From NCBI RefSeq assembly GCF_056746865.1, contig NZ_CM163382.1: 64,000 nucleotides of DNA; one strand, given 5' to 3'. Of this stretch, positions 1-8,929 are shown one piece after another; position 1 is the stretch's first letter; every line of letters starts with the position of its first letter. A program made the position numbers and the translations under genes. The notes below the pieces were generated by a model that was not told the DNA's origin, searched no databases, and saw nothing but the letters and a program-made list of their open reading frames with translations.

Positions 1-185
1 GCAAAAAACGAGCAGTGGTTGACTATATTTCAGGTATGATGGATACATTTGCAGTCAAGGAATGGGAAACTCACTGTCTGAAGTAACACTGCCGATTACC
101 AGAGGCGCATATTTTCCCGTTATGGTTATTGCGCCTTTATTCCGTTTCGGTGACAGGTTATTTTAAATATTCTGGAAATGCGTTG

Positions 186-512
186 ATGGGCAAGAACAAT
201 TACCCTGAAAATAAATACAGGAAATGGTTTTCCACAGCAATAACATATCTTATTACAGGTGGTTTGTGCTGGTATATGTTGTGGGCATCCGCTATATCTC
301 ATTATACTGTTTTACAAAATACGGTACCTGAATGGACAACATATTTTTGCACCGGTATAATCACCGGATCTCTTTCTTTTATTTATGCATTTTATATCCG
401 CACCTTTAACAGAACATTAAAGTCTTTATTAAATGCATTCACGGGGGGATTTTGTCTTGGATTTATACTGAGTCCTGATGAATCCCCTAATGATTTTGAT
501 AAAAATCATTAG
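186..512 (+). CDS. hypothetical small membrane protein (about 108 aa)
   Basis: Track ORF 129..512 begins at TTG; first in-frame ATG at 186; several hydrophobic segments; no family recognised; 3-prime end runs into the 475..524 palindrome. Confidence 0.3.
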   Translation: MGKNNYPENKYRKWFSTAITYLITGGLCWYMLWASAISHYTVLQNTVPEWTTYFCTGIITGSLSFIYAFYIRTFNRTLKSLLNAFTGGFCLGFILSPDESPNDFDKNH

Positions 513-800
513 GGGATTCATCAGTGCTTGACCTTGTTTAAAAGCTGTAATATCGCAATTTACTAACTCAATATCTAAATCCATTGGCTTGGATGTACCT
601 CCTGCCTCAAGGAAGCTTTTTGAAAGCTGTCCAAAATCAATAGACTGATCAGCTGATTTCTGAGAAATGCTGCATGGAGCATCAACAACAGTTCCGTTAA
701 AAGTTACTTTACCCTGCCCCTGTGGAATAGTTGGAGCAGCATTTACACCAAAAGACACCACTGCCATAGCTACCGCACCGGCAATAATCGACTTAATCAT
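429..800 (-). pseudogene. papA: papA-like major pilin gene, 5-prime fragment (3-prime end replaced)
   Basis: Translation MIKSIIAGAVAMAVVSFGVNAAPTIPQGQGKVTFNGTVVDAPCSISQ...DIELVNCDITAFK matches PapA N-terminus; similarity stops near 537, tail is unrelated; ATG at 800 with upstream AGAGG. Confidence 0.75.
475..524. repeat. 50-bp perfect palindrome made of two head-to-head IS10-like terminal inverted repeats
   Basis: CTGATGAATCCCCTAATGATTTT-GATA-AAAATCATTAGGGGATTCATCAG read directly; left arm matches the IS10/Tn10 outside end as I recall it. Confidence 0.55.
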
Positions 801-1006
801 AAATAACAACCTCTTTTTCATTACTGAACACACCAGAGATATCTGGCAATTTAAAATGACCCGATTACCTTTAATAACCAGATCAATACAAATAATATTC
901 TCGTATTTTCAGGGCAGGTTATTTATCGACAGAATACTGATATAACCTGTCTGCTTTCTGATAAGGACTTCTTTTTATCTGTAAGATAACTCCGGAATGC
1001 CATCAT

Positions 1007-1321
1007 TCAGTCAAATGCCGACGACTCATCTGTATAATAAGGTGCAAGCCTTGCTGCAAGAGCATTCAGCCGTATAAGTCTCCCAAGTGTTGTACTGAAA
1101 TACCCATTATTCATCTGGTATTTCTCGCAGACCTCCTTACGGGAGTGCCCACCTACCAGATAGTCCTTCATAGCCAGAATGACCCTGTCACTGTGAATAG
1201 AAGAAATACCTATCAGTAAAAAAAAATGCATTTCAGACATAGAGCCGGGCAACAGTACGCTCTCGCGTATATTCAGCAAAAACGCATTTCCTGACCGACT
1301 GATGACTTCATGATGCGCCAT
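1007..1321 (-). CDS. papB: PapB-family fimbrial operon regulator
   Basis: 104-aa product MAHHEVISRSGNAFLLNIRESVLLPGS... matches PapB/SfaB/FaeB family; sits upstream of the pilin gene on the same strand. Confidence 0.85.
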   Translation of the reverse strand: MAHHEVISRSGNAFLLNIRESVLLPGSMSEMHFFLLIGISSIHSDRVILAMKDYLVGGHSRKEVCEKYQMNNGYFSTTLGRLIRLNALAARLAPYYTDESSAFD

Positions 1322-1426
1322 GTTTCCCCCTTCTGTCGGGCCCCTGGATATATGCTTCCGGCCCGGAAATACTCTTCACGCAATAAGTTAAATTTAGTTT
1401 TTTATGTTGTAAATATTGATTTAAAC

Positions 1427-1532
1427 GATCTTTTAACCCACAAAATAAAATTAAACTAGAATAAAACACTAATAATAAGAATGCGCTCAGATAAAAACAT
1501 CATAGTAAATTGAATTTACAGCATAAAAGATC
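1427..1532. promoter_or_regulatory. pap-type phase-variation switch: two GATC (Dam) sites 102 bp apart in the papI-papB intergenic region
   Basis: GATC at 1427-1430 (CGATCTTTTA) and 1529-1532 (AAAAGATCGT) read directly; spacing and flanks fit the Lrp/Dam pap switch; intergenic length 422 bp. Confidence 0.7.
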
Positions 1533-1641
1533 GTCTAAATGCATTTTTACGGACTTTCTTTTCACAGAAAAATAAAACGCAAAATGTGATACATATCAAA
1601 TAAAGCAAATAAAAAGCAAATTCACTAAATTGCACAAATAA

Positions 1642-1668
1642 AGCAAACACAGCAAACACAGCAAACAC
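1642..1668. repeat. 3 x 9-bp perfect tandem repeat (AGCAAACAC)
   Basis: Read directly upstream of papI start. Confidence 0.8.
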
Positions 1669-1743
1669 AGAGAATAAAAATACCTTTCCGTTGATAACAG
1701 AAAGCATGATTTTTATTATTCGAAGAAACTTTGTTACAGTGAG

Positions 1744-1966
1744 ATGAGTGAATATATGAAGAATGAAATACTGGAATTTCTGAACAGGCATGATGGAGGG
1801 AAAACGGCAGAAATTGCGGAGGCGCTGGCGGTAACGGATTACCAGGCCCGCTATTACCTGTTATTACTGGAAAAAGCAGGTATGGTTCAGCGCTCACCAT
1901 TAAGACGGGGCATGGCAACATACTGGCTTCTGAAAGGAGAGAAGCAGGCGGGGCAGAGTTGTTCAC
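1744..1966 (+). pseudogene. papI: papI-like regulator gene, C-terminus replaced at junction with ISCR2 fragment
   Basis: [16 protein letters not shown]...RRGMATYW matches PapI; homology ends after ...AGQSCS (about 1966), then the frame runs into IS91-family sequence. Confidence 0.7.
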
Positions 1967-2612
1967 TTTGCAAACTCTGCCGACCAGTGGTGATCCGTTC
2001 GGTGACGGGATTGGCAAGGTAGCCGGGTCCAGCCTGCACGCCGGCGTGGCGGCCAGGGCCGATGAACGCAAGAAGCTCGAACGGCTGTGCCGGTACATCA
2101 GCCGCCCGGCGGTATCCGAGAAGCGGCTGTCGTTAACACGAGGCGGCAACGTGCGCTACCAGCTCAAGACGCCGTACCGGGACGGCACCACGCACGTCAT
2201 TTTCGAACCATTGGATTTCATTGCAAGGCTGGCCGCCCTGGTACCGAAGCCCAGAGTCAACCTAACCCGCTTCCACGGGGTGTTCGCACCCAACAGTCGG
2301 CACCGGGCGTTGGTCACGCCGGCAAAACGGGGCAGGGGCAACAAGGTCAGGGTGGCTGATGAACCGGCAACACCAGCACAACGGCGAGCGTCGATGACAT
2401 GGGCGCAACGGCTCAAGCGTGTTTTCAATATCGACATCGAGACCTGCAGCGGCTGCGGCGGCGCCATGAAAGTCATCGCCTGCATTGAAGACCCTATAGT
2501 GATCAAGCAGATCCTTGATCACCTGAAGCACAAAGCCGAAACCAGCGGGACCAGGGCGTTACCCGAAAGCCGGGCGCCACCGGCTGAGCTGCTCCTGGGT
2601 CTGTTTGACTGA
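1966..2612 (+). mobile_element. ISCR2-like (IS91 family) transposase gene, 3-prime fragment
   Basis: C-terminal translation ...NIDIETCSGCGGAMKVIACIEDPIVIKQILDHLK... is IS91/ISCR-family; lies upstream of the virD2-like/floR unit. Confidence 0.65.
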
Positions 2613-2642
2613 CGAGCCTGAAGGCCAACGATACCAATCAAA

Positions 2643-3527
2643 ATGCTGCGTTCACAGCGCCGCGGCAGGGATCCGCCGTGCTGGTTGTCGGAAAAGGAGC
2701 CGCTAGTGGGAAAGAGGAGGGTAAATTTTCAGCGTTGCTGGCTCCCCGTCAGCCGGATTGGGTTGCATCGCAGGGGTGTCGAAAGAGTCAACTGCGGTCC
2801 AAAGCTGTTGGACTTGGGTGAAAAGGGCGTTTATTCTTCCTATACGTGCCGCGTTCCAGGCGGCGACTATGAGGGCTATGTCGATGCCCATGTGCGCCGG
2901 CTGGAGGCGCTACGCCGGGCCGGTATCGTCGAGCGGATCGACGCCGACCAATGGCGCATCCCCAATGATCTGGTCAGCCGTGCCGCCGCCCATGACGCCG
3001 GCCGAGACAGTCAGGCCAGCGTTCGCGTCCTTTCCCCGGTCGATCTGAACAAACAGATCGGATCGGACGGCGCGACCTGGCTGGACCGGCGGCTGATCCA
3101 CGGCGAGACGGCCGACCTTGCGCCAACCGGCTTCGGGCAACAAGTCCGCGAAGCCATGGACCAGCGCCGCGAGCACCATATCGAACAGGGCGACGCCACC
3201 CGCAGCCGGGACAGCCGCGTCTTCTACCGGCGCAACCTTCTCGCCATCCTGCGGGAGCGCGAGGTAGCCGGCGTCGGATCGGATATGGCTTTGAGTAAGG
3301 GCCTGCCGTTCCGCGCCGCCACGGACGGCGAGAGCGTCAGCGGCAAGTTTACCGGAACCGTGCATCTATCGAGCGGCAAGTTCGCCGTGGTCGAGAAATC
3401 CCATGAGTTCACCCTTGTCCCGTGGCGGCCGATCATCGACCGCCAACTCGGCCGCGAGGTTATGGGCATCGTGCAGGGCGGGTCGGTGTCGTGGCAGTTA
3501 GGGCGGCAGAGGGGGCTGGAACGCTGA
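2643..3527 (+). CDS. truncated relaxase-like ORF (virD2-like) that usually accompanies floR
   Basis: 294-aa ORF directly upstream of floR in the ISCR2-floR module; recognised by context and recalled similarity, function uncertain. Confidence 0.5.
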   Translation: MLRSQRRGRDPPCWLSEKEPLVGKRRVNFQRCWLPVSRIGLHRRGVERVNCGPKLLDLGEKGVYSSYTCRVPGGDYEGYVDAHVRRLEALRRAGIVERIDADQWRIPNDLVSRAAAHDAGRDSQASVRVLSPVDLNKQIGSDGATWLDRRLIHGETADLAPTGFGQQVREAMDQRREHHIEQGDATRSRDSRVFYRRNLLAILREREVAGVGSDMALSKGLPFRAATDGESVSGKFTGTVHLSSGKFAVVEKSHEFTLVPWRPIIDRQLGREVMGIVQGGSVSWQLGRQRGLER

Positions 3528-3743
3528 GTGCGCCCATGCCGCATTGCGAAGCAAAAGATAATCGGATAAAATGTAGCAATTCATATTCGTAAGCGTGGAG
3601 TAATCAGATGGGAAATTCCAAGTCAGCAGACAAGTAAGCCGCAACAACCAGTATTGTTGTTGCGGCGCTCTGTAAGGCTAGTCTCATCTGATTGCTGACG
3701 AGCAGACGTCGCCCGGTATTCCTTAATCGAGGGTTGATTCGTC

Positions 3744-4958
3744 ATGACCACCACACGCCCCGCGTGGGCCTATACGCTGCCGGCAGCACTGCTGCTGATG
3801 GCTCCTTTCGACATCCTCGCTTCACTGGCGATGGATATTTATCTCCCTGTCGTTCCAGCGATGCCCGGCATCCTGAACACGACGCCCGCTATGATCCAAC
3901 TCACGTTGAGCCTCTATATGGTGATGCTCGGCGTGGGCCAGGTGATTTTTGGTCCGCTCTCAGACAGAATCGGGCGACGGCCAATTCTACTTGCGGGCGC
4001 AACGGCTTTCGTCATTGCGTCTCTGGGAGCAGCTTGGTCTTCAACTGCACCGGCCTTTGTCGCTTTCCGTCTACTTCAAGCAGTGGGCGCGTCGGCCATG
4101 CTGGTGGCGACGTTCGCGACGGTTCGCGACGTTTATGCCAACCGTCCTGAGGGTGTCGTCATCTACGGCCTTTTCAGTTCGATGCTGGCGTTCGTGCCTG
4201 CGCTCGGCCCTATCGCCGGAACATTGATCGGCGAGTTCTTGGGATGGCAGGCGATATTCATTACTTTGGCTATACTGGCGATGCTCGCACTCCTAAATGC
4301 GGGTTTCAGGTGGCACGAAACCCGCCCTCTGGATCAAGTCAAGACGCGCCGATCTGTCTTGCCGATCTTCGCGAGTCCGGCTTTTTGGGTTTACACTGTC
4401 GGCTTTAGCGCCGGTATGGGCACCTACTTCGTCTTCTTCTCGACGGCTCCCCGTGTGCTCATAGGCCAAGCGGAATATTCCGAGATCGGATTCAGCTTTG
4501 CCTTCGCCACTGTCGCGCTTGTAATGATCGTGACAACCCGTTTCGCGAAGTCCTTTGTCGCCAGATGGGGCATCGCAGGATGCGTGGCGCGTGGGATGGC
4601 GTTGCTTGTTTGCGGAGCGGTCCTGTTGGGGAGCGGCGAACTTTACGGCTCGCCGTCATTCCTCACCTTCATCCTACCGATGTGGGTTGTCGCGGTCGGT
4701 ATTGTCTTCACGGTGTCCGTTACCGCGAACGGCGCTTTGGCAGAGTTCGACGACATCGCGGGATCAGCGGTCGCGTTCTACTTCTGCGTTCAAAGCCTGA
4801 TAGTCAGCATTGTCGGGACATTGGCGGTGGCACTTTTAAACGGTGACACAGCGTGGCCCGTGATCTGTTACGCCACGGCGATGGCGGTACTGGTTTCGTT
4901 GGGGCTGGTGCTCCTTCGGCTCCGTGGGGCTGCCACCGAGAAGTCGCCAGTCGTCTAA
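3744..4958 (+). CDS. floR: florfenicol/chloramphenicol MFS efflux protein FloR
   Basis: 404-aa product MTTTRPAWAYTLPAALLLMAPFDILASLAMDIYLPVVPAMPGIL... matches FloR over full length. Confidence 0.95.
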   Translation: MTTTRPAWAYTLPAALLLMAPFDILASLAMDIYLPVVPAMPGILNTTPAMIQLTLSLYMVMLGVGQVIFGPLSDRIGRRPILLAGATAFVIASLGAAWSSTAPAFVAFRLLQAVGASAMLVATFATVRDVYANRPEGVVIYGLFSSMLAFVPALGPIAGTLIGEFLGWQAIFITLAILAMLALLNAGFRWHETRPLDQVKTRRSVLPIFASPAFWVYTVGFSAGMGTYFVFFSTAPRVLIGQAEYSEIGFSFAFATVALVMIVTTRFAKSFVARWGIAGCVARGMALLVCGAVLLGSGELYGSPSFLTFILPMWVVAVGIVFTVSVTANGALAEFDDIAGSAVAFYFCVQSLIVSIVGTLAVALLNGDTAWPVICYATAMAVLVSLGLVLLRLRGAATEKSPVV

Positions 4959-4985
4959 CCGACGACTGGTAGCAGGCCCGCTCCG

Positions 4986-5291
4986 ATGCGGCGCACTAAC
5001 CATCGAAACCTCGTGAATGTCGGTATCCTGTCTGGCAGGATACCGCTCATTTCCCTTGTTCAGTTCATCGCCGTCGCCGAGCATCTGAATTTTCGGCATG
5101 CGGCCAAGGCACTTGGTATCAGCCAGTCGAGCGTCAGCGCGCGTGTGAAAGCGCTGGAGGATAACCTTGGTGTCCTGCTATTTGAGCGCCATGCGCGGGG
5201 CGTTCGGCTAACAGACGCAGGCAGGCACTTCATGGAGCGTGTCACGGCGGGTGTCGATCAACTCGATCACGCAGTGAAGACCGCGGAGTGA
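4986..5291 (+). pseudogene. LysR-family regulator, N-terminal HTH fragment (floR-associated)
   Basis: 101-aa product with LysR-type HTH (FIAVAEHLNFRHAAKALGISQSSVSARVKALE); too short for a full LysR protein. Confidence 0.6.
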
Positions 5292-5402
5292 CGGGCACTG
5301 GCTGGCAATGTCTAGCAACGGCAGGCATTTCGGCTGAGGGTAAAAGAACTTTCCGCTAAGCGATAGACTGTATGTAAACACAGTATTGCAAGGACGCGGA
5401 AC

Positions 5403-5588
5403 ATGCCTCATGTGGCGGCCAGGACGGCCAGCCGGGATCGGGATACTGGTCGTTACCAGAGCCACCGACCCGAGCAAACCCTTCTCTATCAGATCGTTGA
5501 CGAGTATTACCCGGCATTCGCTGCGCTTATGGCAGAGCAGGGAAAGGAATTGCCGGGCTATGTGCAACGGGAATTTGAAGAATTTCTC
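5403..5588 (+). mobile_element. ISCR2-like transposase gene, 5-prime fragment truncated at tetA junction
   Basis: N-terminal IS91-family motif TLLYQIVDEYYPAFAALMAEQGKELPGYVQREFEEFL; similarity ends about 5588 where the tetA 3-prime end begins. Confidence 0.55.
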
Positions 5589-6757
5589 CAAAGCCCGCGA
5601 CGCAGCGCCGGCAGGCAGAGCAAGTAGAGGGCAGCGCCTGCAATCCATGCCCACCCGTTCCACGTTGTTATAGAAGCCGCATAGATCGCCGTGAAGAGGA
5701 GGGGTCCGACGATCGAGGTCAGGCTGGTGAGCGCCGCCAGTGAGCCTTGCAGCTGCCCCTGACGTTCCTCATCCACCTGCCTGGACAACATTGCTTGCAG
5801 CGCCGGCATTCCGATGCCACCCGAAGCAAGCAGGACCATGATCGGGAACGCCATCCATCCCCGTGTCGCGAAGGCAAGCAGGATGTAGCCTGTGCCGTCG
5901 GCAATCATTCCGAGCATGAGTGCCCGCCTTTCGCCGAGCCGGGCGGCTACAGGGCCGGTGATCATTGCCTGGGCGAGTGAATGCAGAATGCCAAATGCGG
6001 CAAGCGAAATGCCGATCGTGGTCGCGTCCCAGTGAAAGCGATCCTCGCCGAAAATGACCCAAAGCGCGGCCGGCACCTGTCCGACAAGTTGCATGATGAA
6101 GAAGACCGCCATCAGGGCGGCGACGACGGTCATGCCCCGGGCCCACCGGAACGAAGCGAGCGGGTTGAGAGCCTCCCGGCGTAACGGCCGGCGTTCGCCT
6201 TTGTGCGACTCCGGCAAAAGGAAACAGCCCGTCAGGAAATTGAGGCCGTTCAAGGCTGCCGCGGCGAAGAACGGAGCGTGGGGGGAGAAACCGCCCATCA
6301 GCCCACCGAGCACAGGTCCCGCGACCATCCCGAACCCGAAACAGGCGCTCATGAAGCCGAAGTGCCGCGCGCGCTCATCGCCATCAGTGATATCGGCAAT
6401 ATAAGCGCCGGCTACCGCCCCAGTCGCCCCGGTGATGCCGGCCACGATCCGCCCGATATAGAGAACCCAAAGGAAAGGCGTCGTCGCCATGATGGCGTAG
6501 TCGACAGCAGCGCCGGCCAGCGAGACGAGCAAGACCGGCCGCCGCCCGAAACGATCCGACAGCGCGCCCAGCACAGGTGCGCAGGCAAATTGCATCAACG
6601 CATACAGCGCCAGCAGAATGCCATAGTGGGCGGTGACGTCGTTCGAGTGAACCAGATCGCGCAGGAGGCCCGGCAGCACCGGCATAATCAGGCCGATGCC
6701 GACAGCGTCGAGCGCGACAGTGCTCAGAATTACGATCAGGGGTCTGTTGGGTTTCAC
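5558..6757 (-). CDS. tetA: tetracycline efflux MFS transporter TetA, class A, GTG start, variant last 9 residues
   Basis: VKPNRPLIVILSTVALDAVGIGLIMPVLPGLLRDLVHS... matches TetA(A); divergent to tetR with operators between; C-terminal ...RGLWRNSSNSRCT differs from my recollection of canonical TetA(A). Confidence 0.9.
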   Translation of the reverse strand: MKPNRPLIVILSTVALDAVGIGLIMPVLPGLLRDLVHSNDVTAHYGILLALYALMQFACAPVLGALSDRFGRRPVLLVSLAGAAVDYAIMATTPFLWVLYIGRIVAGITGATGAVAGAYIADITDGDERARHFGFMSACFGFGMVAGPVLGGLMGGFSPHAPFFAAAALNGLNFLTGCFLLPESHKGERRPLRREALNPLASFRWARGMTVVAALMAVFFIMQLVGQVPAALWVIFGEDRFHWDATTIGISLAAFGILHSLAQAMITGPVAARLGERRALMLGMIADGTGYILLAFATRGWMAFPIMVLLASGGIGMPALQAMLSRQVDEERQGQLQGSLAALTSLTSIVGPLLFTAIYAASITTWNGWAWIAGAALYLLCLPALRRGLWRNSSNSRCT

Positions 6758-6805
6758 GTCTGGCCTCCGGACCAGCCTCCGCTGGTCCGATTGAACGCGC
6801 GGATT

Positions 6806-6854
6806 CTTTATCACTGATAAGTTGGTGGACATATTATGTTTATCAGTGATAAAG
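6806..6854. promoter_or_regulatory. tetA/tetR divergent promoter region with two palindromic tet operators
   Basis: TTTATCACTGATAAG and TTTATCAGTGATAAAG palindromes read directly between the divergent genes. Confidence 0.6.
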
Positions 6855-6862
6855 TGTCAAGC

Positions 6863-7513
6863 ATGACAAAGTTGCAGCCGAATACAGTGATCCGTGCCGC
6901 CCTGGACCTGTTGAACGAGGTCGGCGTAGACGGTCTGACGACACGCAAACTGGCGGAACGGTTGGGGGTTCAGCAGCCGGCGCTTTACTGGCACTTCAGG
7001 AACAAGCGGGCGCTGCTCGACGCACTGGCCGAAGCCATGCTGGCGGAGAATCATACGCATTCGGTGCCGAGAGCCGACGACGACTGGCGCTCATTTCTGA
7101 TCGGGAATGCCCGCAGCTTCAGGCAGGCGCTGCTCGCCTACCGCGATGGCGCGCGCATCCATGCCGGCACGCGACCGGGCGCACCGCAGATGGAAACGGC
7201 CGACGCGCAGCTTCGCTTCCTCTGCGAGGCGGGTTTTTCGGCCGGGGACGCCGTCAATGCGCTGATGACAATCAGCTACTTCACTGTTGGGGCCGTGCTT
7301 GAGGAGCAGGCCGGCGACAGCGATGCCGGCGAGCGCGGCGGCACCGTTGAACAGGCTCCGCTCTCGCCGCTGTTGCGGGCCGCGATAGACGCCTTCGACG
7401 AAGCCGATCCGGACGCAGCGTTCGAGCAGGGACTCGCGGTGATTGTCGATGGATTGGCGAAAAGGAGGCTCGTTGTCAGGAACGTTGAAGGACCGAGAAA
7501 GGGTGACGATTGA
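6863..7513 (+). CDS. tetR: tetracycline repressor TetR, class A
   Basis: MTKLQPNTVIRAALDLLNEVGVDGLTTRKLAERLGVQQPALYWHFRNKRALLDAL... matches TetR(A). Confidence 0.9.
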   Translation: MTKLQPNTVIRAALDLLNEVGVDGLTTRKLAERLGVQQPALYWHFRNKRALLDALAEAMLAENHTHSVPRADDDWRSFLIGNARSFRQALLAYRDGARIHAGTRPGAPQMETADAQLRFLCEAGFSAGDAVNALMTISYFTVGAVLEEQAGDSDAGERGGTVEQAPLSPLLRAAIDAFDEADPDAAFEQGLAVIVDGLAKRRLVVRNVEGPRKGDD

Positions 7514-7986
7514 TCAGGACCGCTGCCGGAGCGCAACCCACTCACTACAGCAGAGCCATGTAGACAACATCCCCTCCCCCTTTCCACCGCGTCAGACGCC
7601 CGTAGCAGCCCGCTACGGGCTTTTTCATGCCCTGCCCTAGCGTCCAAGCCTCACGGCCGCGCTCGGCCTCTCTGGCGGCCTTCTGGCGCTCCTGCTGCGG
7701 CGTCCGCTCGTGGGCCGTGGCGCGGGTCCGCGCGCCGGCCTCGTGCGCCTGGCGCTCGCGGGCGAGGTCCAGGGCGGCCGTCTTCACGTTCTGCCTTGCG
7801 CAGATGAGATAGATCTAGCGTGGACTCAAGGCTCTCGCGAATGGCTCGCGTTGGAAACTTTCATTGACACTTGAGGGGCACCGCAGGGAAATTCTCGTCC
7901 TTGCGAGAACCGGCTATGTCGTGCTGCGCATCGAGCCTGCGCCCTTGGCTTGTCTCGCCCCTCTCCGCGTCGCTACGGGGCTTCCA

Positions 7987-8067
7987 GGGGTCGTTTGCGG
8001 GAAGGGGCGGAATCCTACGCTAAGGCTTTGGCCAGCGATATTCTCCGGTGAGATTGATGTGTTCCCA
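7987..8067. repeat. Tn3-family terminal inverted repeat downstream of strB (Tn5393-type right IR)
   Basis: GGGGTCGTTTGCGGGAAGGGGCGGAATCCTACGCTAAG starts at 7987, outermost GGGG facing away from strB, about 70 bp past the strB stop. Confidence 0.5.
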
Positions 8068-8092
8068 GGGGATAGGAGAAGTCGCTTGATAT

Positions 8093-8929
8093 CTAGTATG
8101 ACGTCTGTCGCACCTGCTTGATCGCGGCCGCGATAGCTAGATCGCGTTGCTCCTCTTCTCCATCCGCGTTCCAAGCTGCGGAAAGGCACCCATAAGCGTA
8201 CGCCTGGTCGAGCAGGCGACGCGGATCGACGTCCAGCGCACGAGAGAATGCGTCCGCCATCTGTGCAATGCGTCTAGGATCGAGACAAAGGTCGTCTCTG
8301 TCAGCCGGATCGTAGAACATATTGGCGGCGCCAAAGCCCACTTCACCGACCAGACCGACGGGATCTATCACCAGCCAGCCGCGACTGGAGAACATGATGT
8401 TTTCATGATGCAGATCGCCATGTAGCCCACGCAGTTCCGAGGCATTGCTCATCATTTGATCGGCTATAATCGCCGCGTGGACGTACTCAGTTTGACAACC
8501 TGCGTTTTGATCATCGCGCGCCCGCTGAAACAAAGCTGCAAAGCGATCCCGGATCGGGAGAAGGGCAGAAGGCAGGGGTTCCTCAGATGCGGCATACAGC
8601 TTCGCCATTAGTTCCGCTGCAATTTCGGTCGCCTGGTAGTCGCCGTGCTCGGCAACGATGTGAGAGAGCATTCGCTCCCCGGCATATTCGAGCAACATCA
8701 GATTGTTCTCACGACCGAGCAACCGGACTGCTCCCCTCCCATTGCGCCATACCAGATAGTCGGCCCCGCGCAGTTCATCAGCAATGTCTTCTATAGGTTT
8801 CAATCCCTTGACGATTGCAGGAGTCCCGTCTGGCAATGAAACTTTCCAAACGAGGCTGGAAAAGGTGTCCGCAATGAGAACAGGTTGCGAAACGTGCCAA
8901 TGAGCAGGAAAAACAGGCGGCATGAACAT
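8093..8929 (-). CDS. strB: aminoglycoside 6-phosphotransferase APH(6)-Id (StrB)
   Basis: MFMPPVFPAHWHVSQPVLIADTFSSLVWKVSLPDGTPAIVKGL... full-length match; start ATG overlaps strA stop (ATGA). Confidence 0.93.
   Translation of the reverse strand: MFMPPVFPAHWHVSQPVLIADTFSSLVWKVSLPDGTPAIVKGLKPIEDIADELRGADYLVWRNGRGAVRLLGRENNLMLLEYAGERMLSHIVAEHGDYQATEIAAELMAKLYAASEEPLPSALLPIRDRFAALFQRARDDQNAGCQTEYVHAAIIADQMMSNASELRGLHGDLHHENIMFSSRGWLVIDPVGLVGEVGFGAANMFYDPADRDDLCLDPRRIAQMADAFSRALDVDPRRLLDQAYAYGCLSAAWNADGEEEQRDLAIAAAIKQVRQTSY

Follow-up and report, generated by a model that had tools for sequence, protein, structure and literature searches.

The tet(A) gene of the window, the 64,000-nt stretch of contig NZ_CM163382.1 (assembly GCF_056746865.1) analyzed here with coordinates counted from its first letter, ends in nine codons and a stop that are read antisense from a truncated ISCR2 element. 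Very probably, this is a widespread allele that owes its 3′ end to an old illegitimate recombination, the product of which now persists as a neutral scar marking a sul2-strAB-tetAR-ΔISCR2 resistance module. The translated window protein ends ...RRGLW-RNSSNSRCT, compared with ...RRGLW-SGAGQRADR in Tn1721-type TetA, both tails being nine residues long. A preliminary description of this DNA had placed the 3′ end of tet(A) at a truncated ISCR2 and had given a different canonical C terminus; alignment, blastn, and codon mapping bear out the first point, and the tail of Tn1721-type TetA agrees with the second. That description also put the end of ISCR2 similarity at about position 5588, which lies inside the 5586-5591 overlap and is accurate to within 3 bp.

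The junction was located by a three-way DNA alignment and blastn comparison of the window, the Tn1721-type locus of p14EC017b, and an intact ISCR2 (ISVsa3) locus that lies beside floR-lysR (NZ_CP019443.1). Window positions 4900-5591 are 100% identical to the intact ISCR2 locus and positions 5586-7812 are 100% identical to the tetA-tetR segment of p14EC017b, with the window tracking ISCR2 up to ...GAAGAATTTCTCCAA and Tn1721 from CTCCAAAGCCCGCG... onward. The first tetA mismatch to the Tn1721-type gene falls at nucleotide 1173 (window position 5585), where AGA (Arg) replaces AGC (Ser), and codons 391-399 together with the TAG stop differ between the two genes. The stretch of ISCR2 origin starts at the third base of codon 391, runs through codon 399 to the end of the stop, and is antisense to transposase codons 52-61 of ISCR2; the last nine codons plus stop (5558-5587) correspond to transposase codons 52-62. 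In translation, the minus-strand reading frame that terminates at 5558 closes with ...LPALRRGLWRNSSNSRCT (in a longer reading, ...CLPALRRGLWRNSSNSRCT) before its stop, while the tet(A) of the p14EC017b locus, which is convergent with pecM/EamA, closes with ...RRGLWSGAGQRADR. The ISCR2-tetA junction is a deterministic feature and involves no statistical signal. Database matches to tet(A) only, as sampled, all begin at 5586, and matches to ISCR2 only stop at 5591 or 5594. The coordinates of the junction and of the surrounding features are collected in Table 1.

Table 1. Features of the tet(A)-ISCR2 junction and the surrounding resistance island, in window coordinates.
Feature	Position	Strand	Remarks
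Left island part	1961-5291	+	Annotation; 99.7% identical to pMR0617aac
ISCR2 3′ fragment	about 1961-2612	+	Annotation
DUF3363/virD2-like gene	2643-3527	+	Annotation
floR	3744-4958	+	Annotation
Truncated lysR	4986-5291	+	Abuts the ΔISCR2 fragment
ΔISCR2 (ISVsa3) fragment	5285-5591	+	307 bp; 100% identical to intact ISCR2 of NZ_CP019443.1
tet(A), class A tetracycline efflux gene	5558-6757	-	399 aa; GTG start, TAG stop at 5558-5560
ISCR2-origin stretch	5558-5585	-	28 nt; replaces the last 28 nt of Tn1721-type tetA; 100% identical to intact ISCR2
Recombination junction	5586-5591		6-bp microhomology CTCCAA common to ISCR2 and the tetA 3′ end; blastn overlap
Tn1721-type internal fragment	5586-7986		2401 bp; tetA, promoter-operator region, tetR(A), transposase/relaxase remnant
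Transposase/relaxase remnant	7545-7787	-	243 nt; adjoins tetR and travels with the tetAR segment
Tn5393 inverted repeat, outer end	from 7987		GGGGTCGTTTGCGG...; abuts the Tn1721-type segment
strB/aph(6)-Id	8093-8929	-	Annotation
strA/aph(3″)-Ib	8929-9732	-	Annotation
sul2	9793-10608	-	Annotation

Apart from its tail, the gene is an ordinary tet(A). The E. coli Sanji chromosome is identical to the window over positions 1-12000, and PGAP annotates there the same tet(A) CDS, with its GTG start and 399 codons; RefSeq carries the exact window protein as WP_032153701.1 under the name Tet(A). Against the NCBIfam Tet(A) model NF012193 (cut-off, 840 bits) the window protein scores 891.1 bits and is a member by score. 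The divergent tetR(A) (6863-7513, plus strand) is separated from tetA by a promoter/operator region that is 100% identical to the Tn1721-type region by blastn, with promoter-like sites predicted in both directions at 6808-6860, so that the regulatory arrangement is also that of Tet(A). The Tn1721/RP1-type C terminus ...LWSGAGQRADR is the one hallmark that the window protein lacks, and it is not a family-defining feature, as the family model ends at residue 384 and databases call the tail variant Tet(A). We note that an in-frame ATG upstream yields a 424-aa open reading frame at 5558-6832 (minus strand) and that this longer form has been deposited as Tet(A) (e.g., BCN98145.1) beside the 399-aa GTG-start form, which makes start-site annotation inconsistent for tet(A).

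The ISCR2 remnant retains the end of the element upstream of the transposase gene and the first 63 transposase codons (5403-5591). It has neither a complete transposase gene (1494 bp where intact, as in loci L003 [NZ_CP019443.1] and L001) nor both functional ends; what is absent is the remainder of the gene and the distal (oriIS) end, and the fragment is therefore inactive. PGAP records an IS91-family transposase pseudogene at 5403-5612 (plus strand) that overlaps tetA. On the other side, the tet segment carries no intact transposition genes, neither the 38-bp terminal inverted repeats nor the tnpA/tnpR of Tn1721, and both of its boundaries, 5586 and 7986, are internal to that element; it differs from pSal6919a by just 2 SNPs over 5586-7987. 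Its small minus-strand remnant beside tetR is labeled "transposase" in RefSeq and "relaxase/helicase" or "relaxase" elsewhere, and many Tn1721-derived copies are cut at the equivalent of window position 7812 while others run on to 7987. There the segment meets the outer end of the Tn5393 inverted repeat (GGGGTCGTTTGCGGGAAGGGGCGG...). The complete order is ISCR2 3′ fragment, DUF3363/virD2-like gene, floR, truncated lysR, ΔISCR2, tetA (minus), tetR(A) (plus), strB (minus), strA (minus), and sul2 (minus).

The right-hand part of this arrangement is familiar from small plasmids. Positions 7987-10608 are collinear with 6.2-kb and 8.4-kb plasmids, and small-plasmid matches on the ISCR2 side start at 5285. 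The Shigella sonnei plasmids pKKTET7 and pSS046_spA share both the ΔISCR2-tetA junction and the RNSSNSRCT tail with the window, and pSS4 (AF534183) groups with them by its description; the order common to these plasmids is sul2-strA-strB-Tn5393 inverted repeat-tetR-tetA-ΔISCR2. An 8401-bp S. sonnei plasmid aligns without gaps to window positions 5285-10704 with 4 mismatches. At the protein level the window has T93 where the S. sonnei plasmids have A93, and pKKTET7 additionally has Q80. The window module differs in being chromosomal and in being extended on the ISCR2 side by lysR-floR-virD2-ΔISCR2, where the S. sonnei plasmids have a small-plasmid backbone. The 6.2-kb sul2-strA-strB plasmids of the pSFxv_3 type share the ISCR2 end from 5285 and the sul2-strA-strB-Tn5393 inverted repeat segment, but in these 524 bp of ISCR2 is joined straight to the Tn5393 inverted repeat without tetAR; the window and the 8.4-kb plasmids retain just nucleotides 1-307 of ISCR2, and the 2401-bp tet fragment stands where the pSFxv_3-type plasmids have nucleotides 308-524.

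Larger elements carry the extended arrangement. The large conjugative plasmid pMR0617aac (NZ_CP024459.1) has the same ISCR2-virD2-floR-lysR-ΔISCR2-tetA-tetR-strB-strA-sul2 order, with 10 SNPs over 1961-10909, and differs from the window in that the left ISCR2 of the window is truncated and the whole unit lies within a chromosomal papI-like gene. These floR-tetAR-strAB-sul2 regions presumably also include the islands of ARI-B type on IncC (A/C2) plasmids. Tn1721-type tet(A), as in p14EC017b and pSal6919a, shares tetA nucleotides 1-1172, tetR and beyond, the 399-aa length, and the regulatory region, and departs from the window in that its last nine residues are SGAGQRADR and pecM follows, in the place where the window has ISCR2. 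The window T93 (position 6481) and a tetR SNP (position 7407) are common to the canonical-tail Tn1721 copy of p14EC017b, and strain 14EC017 also has a chromosomal junction allele (records p14EC017b and NZ_CP024134.1). The occurrence of T93 and A93 on both tail backgrounds suggests that exchange may have taken place between tet(A) copies.

The alignments show how the two sequences were joined. A crossover in CTCCAA connected nucleotide 1172 of tetA, within a Tn1721-type tetA-tetR segment, to nucleotide 307 of ISCR2, with loss of the last 28 nt of tetA and of pecM from the Tn1721 side and of everything past nucleotide 307 from the ISCR2 side; the tetA reading frame now runs on into DNA antisense to the ISCR2 transposase gene and meets a TAG after 27 nt. 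Most simply, homology in the Tn5393/strAB region probably held the partners together at one end and the exchange was completed at CTCCAA at the other, which would have converted a sul2-strAB-ΔISCR2 structure into sul2-strAB-tetRA-ΔISCR2. The parent predicted by this scheme, pecM-tetA(canonical)-tetR-...-Tn5393 inverted repeat-strB, was built in silico, and at least 25 plasmids match it over its full length (100% coverage), e.g., pSG17-135-HI2. Such structures may themselves have arisen later, by recombination of the junction-bearing module with a Tn1721 copy, which makes the order of events provisional. The finding that all sampled tet(A)-only matches break at 5586 fits one ancestral event. 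The resulting sul2-strA-strB-tetR-tetA-ΔISCR2(-lysR-floR) module would then have spread between plasmids and chromosomes through recombination and other elements, and the frequency of the allele would follow from the junction having become fixed in a successful module.

Other origins for the junction are improbable to differing degrees. ISCR2 is IS91-like and is believed to mobilize adjacent DNA by rolling-circle transposition, and floR-lysR adjoins its retained end in a setting where ISCR2 copies are plentiful, so an aberrant transposition or mis-termination by the element itself might have produced the junction in place of host recombination at a microhomology. We regard this as quite unlikely, because the break lies 307 bp within the element, inside its transposase gene and at neither functional end. 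The Tn1721 side is likewise an internal point without an inverted repeat, illegitimate recombination typically shows a microhomology such as the 6 bp seen at this crossover, and the single position (5586) in the sampled matches, with 100% identity among the listed junctions, fits one ancestral event and not a recurrent, element-driven process. Transposition of Tn1721 as the source was rejected on similar grounds, as its inverted repeat is found at neither boundary. There is next to no chance that the RNSSNSRCT tail is ancestral and the Tn1721 tail derived, or that sequencing or assembly created a chimeric junction: nothing beyond the difference between the two tails speaks for it. The tail DNA is contiguous with 307 bp of ISCR2 and is 100% identical to a stretch of that element existing intact without tetA in many records, which led us to reject an ancestral tail, and an assembly artifact was rejected because many laboratories and platforms yield the same junction, base for base, in independent records that number in the hundreds (575 complete genomes, 1057 plasmids).

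We infer that the window protein is a working, ordinary TetR-regulated tetracycline/H+ antiporter. The alignment to the Tet(A)/(B)/(C) family model ends at residue 384, ahead of the swapped residues 391-399, which places the swap outside the conserved core. By hydropathy, the final hydrophobic segment ...WAWIAGAALYLLCLPAL (ending ...CLPAL) is followed by RRGLW and then by the tail, so that the swap also lies beyond the last hydrophobic segment; the established Tet/MFS topology puts the C terminus in the cytoplasm. Both tails are polar, with mean hydropathies of -1.84 for RNSSNSRCT and -1.56 for SGAGQRADR and net charges of +2 and +1, respectively, and the new tail also gains a cysteine. The RNSSNSRCT-tail allele is the sole tet gene of the 8.4-kb S. 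sonnei plasmid, and the tetracycline resistance of S. sonnei lineage 3 has been ascribed to the spA plasmid (PMC8113504, PMC5943296). From these features the tail swap is most likely functionally neutral or nearly so. The functional significance implied by the preliminary description finds no support: the family model stops short of the tail, and under the Tet(A) model NF012193 the canonical-tail protein scores 891.5 bits against 891.1 bits for the protein with the RNSSNSRCT tail.

Our literature search found no isogenic comparison of MIC, stability, or fitness between the two tails. The one functional study of tet(A) variants that it found mentions "tet(A)-1" along with Tet(A)v5, a derivative, and gives MIC data (PMC10745318), but the cloning primer used in that study, GCTTGCCGGAAGTCGCCT, maps to the Tn1721-type 3′ flank (p14EC017b locus 2921-2938) and is absent from the window. 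Since it anneals only in that flank, those MIC data cannot be assigned to the RNSSNSRCT tail. The same paper ties the residue profile R5, M55, V75, A84, A201, S202, and F203 to reduced tigecycline susceptibility (PMC10745318). The window TetA body carries all seven residues, as do canonical-tail alleles, and the profile is therefore unrelated to the junction. A search of solved-structure sequences with Tet(A) returned nothing nearer than NorA.

A 3′ end that spread because it was itself beneficial is very unlikely. Under this reading the new tail, or the convergent context of an ISCR2 promoter, alters the stability, toxicity, expression, or substrate range of TetA (e.g., toward glycylcyclines). 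Of the complete E. coli genomes with tet(A), about 31% have the junction, the tail gains a cysteine and one positive charge, and the 118 bp ahead of the transposase start codon of ISCR2 (5285-5402) is kept and points antisense into tetA. Terminator prediction around the junction gave only two hits, both within tetA and at chance level, and thus no terminator-like site between the retained upstream region and tetA; the body of the protein also has the reduced-tigecycline-susceptibility profile, though canonical-tail alleles share it. It is likewise very unlikely that the tail (extra cysteine, +2), or antisense transcripts entering tetA from the retained ISCR2 transposase promoter, would reduce the amount or toxicity of TetA or extend its activity to newer tetracyclines. 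The frequency has a simpler account in linkage to sul2, strAB, and floR, the tail lies outside the conserved core, and the canonical-tail allele is still about twice as common. Canonical Tn1721 already has pecM convergent with the 3′ end of tetA, so convergent transcription is not new. If the 3′ end were nonetheless non-neutral, a fitness edge would have helped the sul2-strAB-tetAR-ΔISCR2 module to reach about one-third of tet(A)-positive E. coli; a neutral scar, the reading that we prefer, raises no new biological question.

The allele is abundant. Of 5426 complete E. coli genomes, 575 matched a 181-nt junction probe (5500-5680) at ≥80% coverage, and 1871 carry the 3′ part of tet(A) alone; these counts underlie the proportion given above and the roughly 2-fold excess of the canonical-tail allele in complete E. 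coli genomes. The junction is borne by 1057 PLSDB plasmids, including the S. sonnei spA/pKKTET7 plasmids. Among the genera represented in the matching PLSDB records are Escherichia, Klebsiella, Salmonella, Shigella, and Vibrio; the full-length junction matches listed, which are all 100% identical, include Shewanella. In a 15-billion-protein collection, the exact 399-aa protein occurs on at least 1000 contigs under the name "MULTISPECIES: tetracycline efflux MFS transporter Tet(A)."

It is also already in the reference sets, and the novelty implied by the preliminary description does not hold. AMRFinderPlus, via PLSDB, assigns 100.0% identity over all 399 codons, tail included, to the alleles of pMR0617aac and the 8401-bp S. 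sonnei plasmid, both of which terminate in RNSSNSRCT on translation. The form matched at 100% is A93, from which the window differs only by T93 (its own allele, by translation, combines T93 with the RNSSNSRCT tail). The canonical-tail allele of pSal6919a likewise scores 100.0%, and the NCBI reference set must consequently hold both ends. The reservation attached to the preliminary description, that reference Tet(A) might already end in the same residues, is thus half right: Tn1721-type tet(A) lacks them, whereas the AMRFinderPlus reference has them.

The ResFinder set points the same way. By translation, pKKTET7 (NC_008439.1) has the RNSSNSRCT tail, and pSS4 of S. sonnei (AF534183) is an 8384-bp plasmid resembling pKKTET7 (PMC4951496); AF534183 is also the ResFinder reference tet(A)_6 (PMC6483562, PMC8601536). 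Given that likeness, AF534183 probably carries the RNSSNSRCT tail. Coverage values of 97.8% are listed for tet(A)_6 (PMC6483562), and 97.8% is (1275 - 28)/1275, the value expected for a Tn1721-type gene against a tail-bearing 1275-nt reference, 1275 nt being the length of the upstream-extended tet(A) reading frame. The figure is consistent with a tail-bearing AF534183. The tet(A) of the window is an old, extremely common, database-referenced allele that is already known; it is known from database content (RefSeq, AMRFinderPlus, and the ResFinder accession), as a full-text literature search found no explicit description of the ISCR2 origin of the Tet(A) tail.

The junction matters chiefly in practice. 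Both tet(A) 3′ ends are in circulation and are used as database references, so tools with a single reference show the other allele at about 97.7 to 97.8% coverage or identity, values open to misreading as truncation or as a "variant." Primers for PCR or cloning that anneal in the Tn1721-type 3′ flank, such as the one discussed above, miss the tail-bearing allele. The junction offers a clean sequence tag with which to trace the sul2-strAB-tetAR-ΔISCR2 module through plasmids and chromosomes. The suggestion in the preliminary description that it might serve as a lineage marker stands in this sense, as a mark of a widespread resistance module, and not for any narrow lineage.

We also note several features of the island and its chromosomal setting. 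The unit of ∼8.95 kb (1961-10909; ΔISCR2-virD2-floR-lysR-ΔISCR2-tetA-tetR-strB-strA-sul2) interrupts a papI-like gene on the chromosome that belongs to a degenerate pap operon. Its flanks show no insertion sequence or direct repeat, and the joins are ambiguous by 2 to 3 bp (GTT) only. About 200 bp past sul2 (10708-10910) is found on many plasmids too, with an IncQ-type repC annotation in one record, which places the end of the resistance segment at about 10909 and not at the end of the small-plasmid match (10707). A papA pseudogene without its C terminus and a PapB-like regulator (531-800 and 1007-1321, both minus strand) adjoin the island, and the fimbrial operon was already degenerate beforehand. 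Window positions 1-12000, flanks included, are present in 127 complete E. coli genomes at ≥80% coverage; the 15 records listed are all chromosomes with 100% identity, and strain E166 has the insertion site unoccupied.
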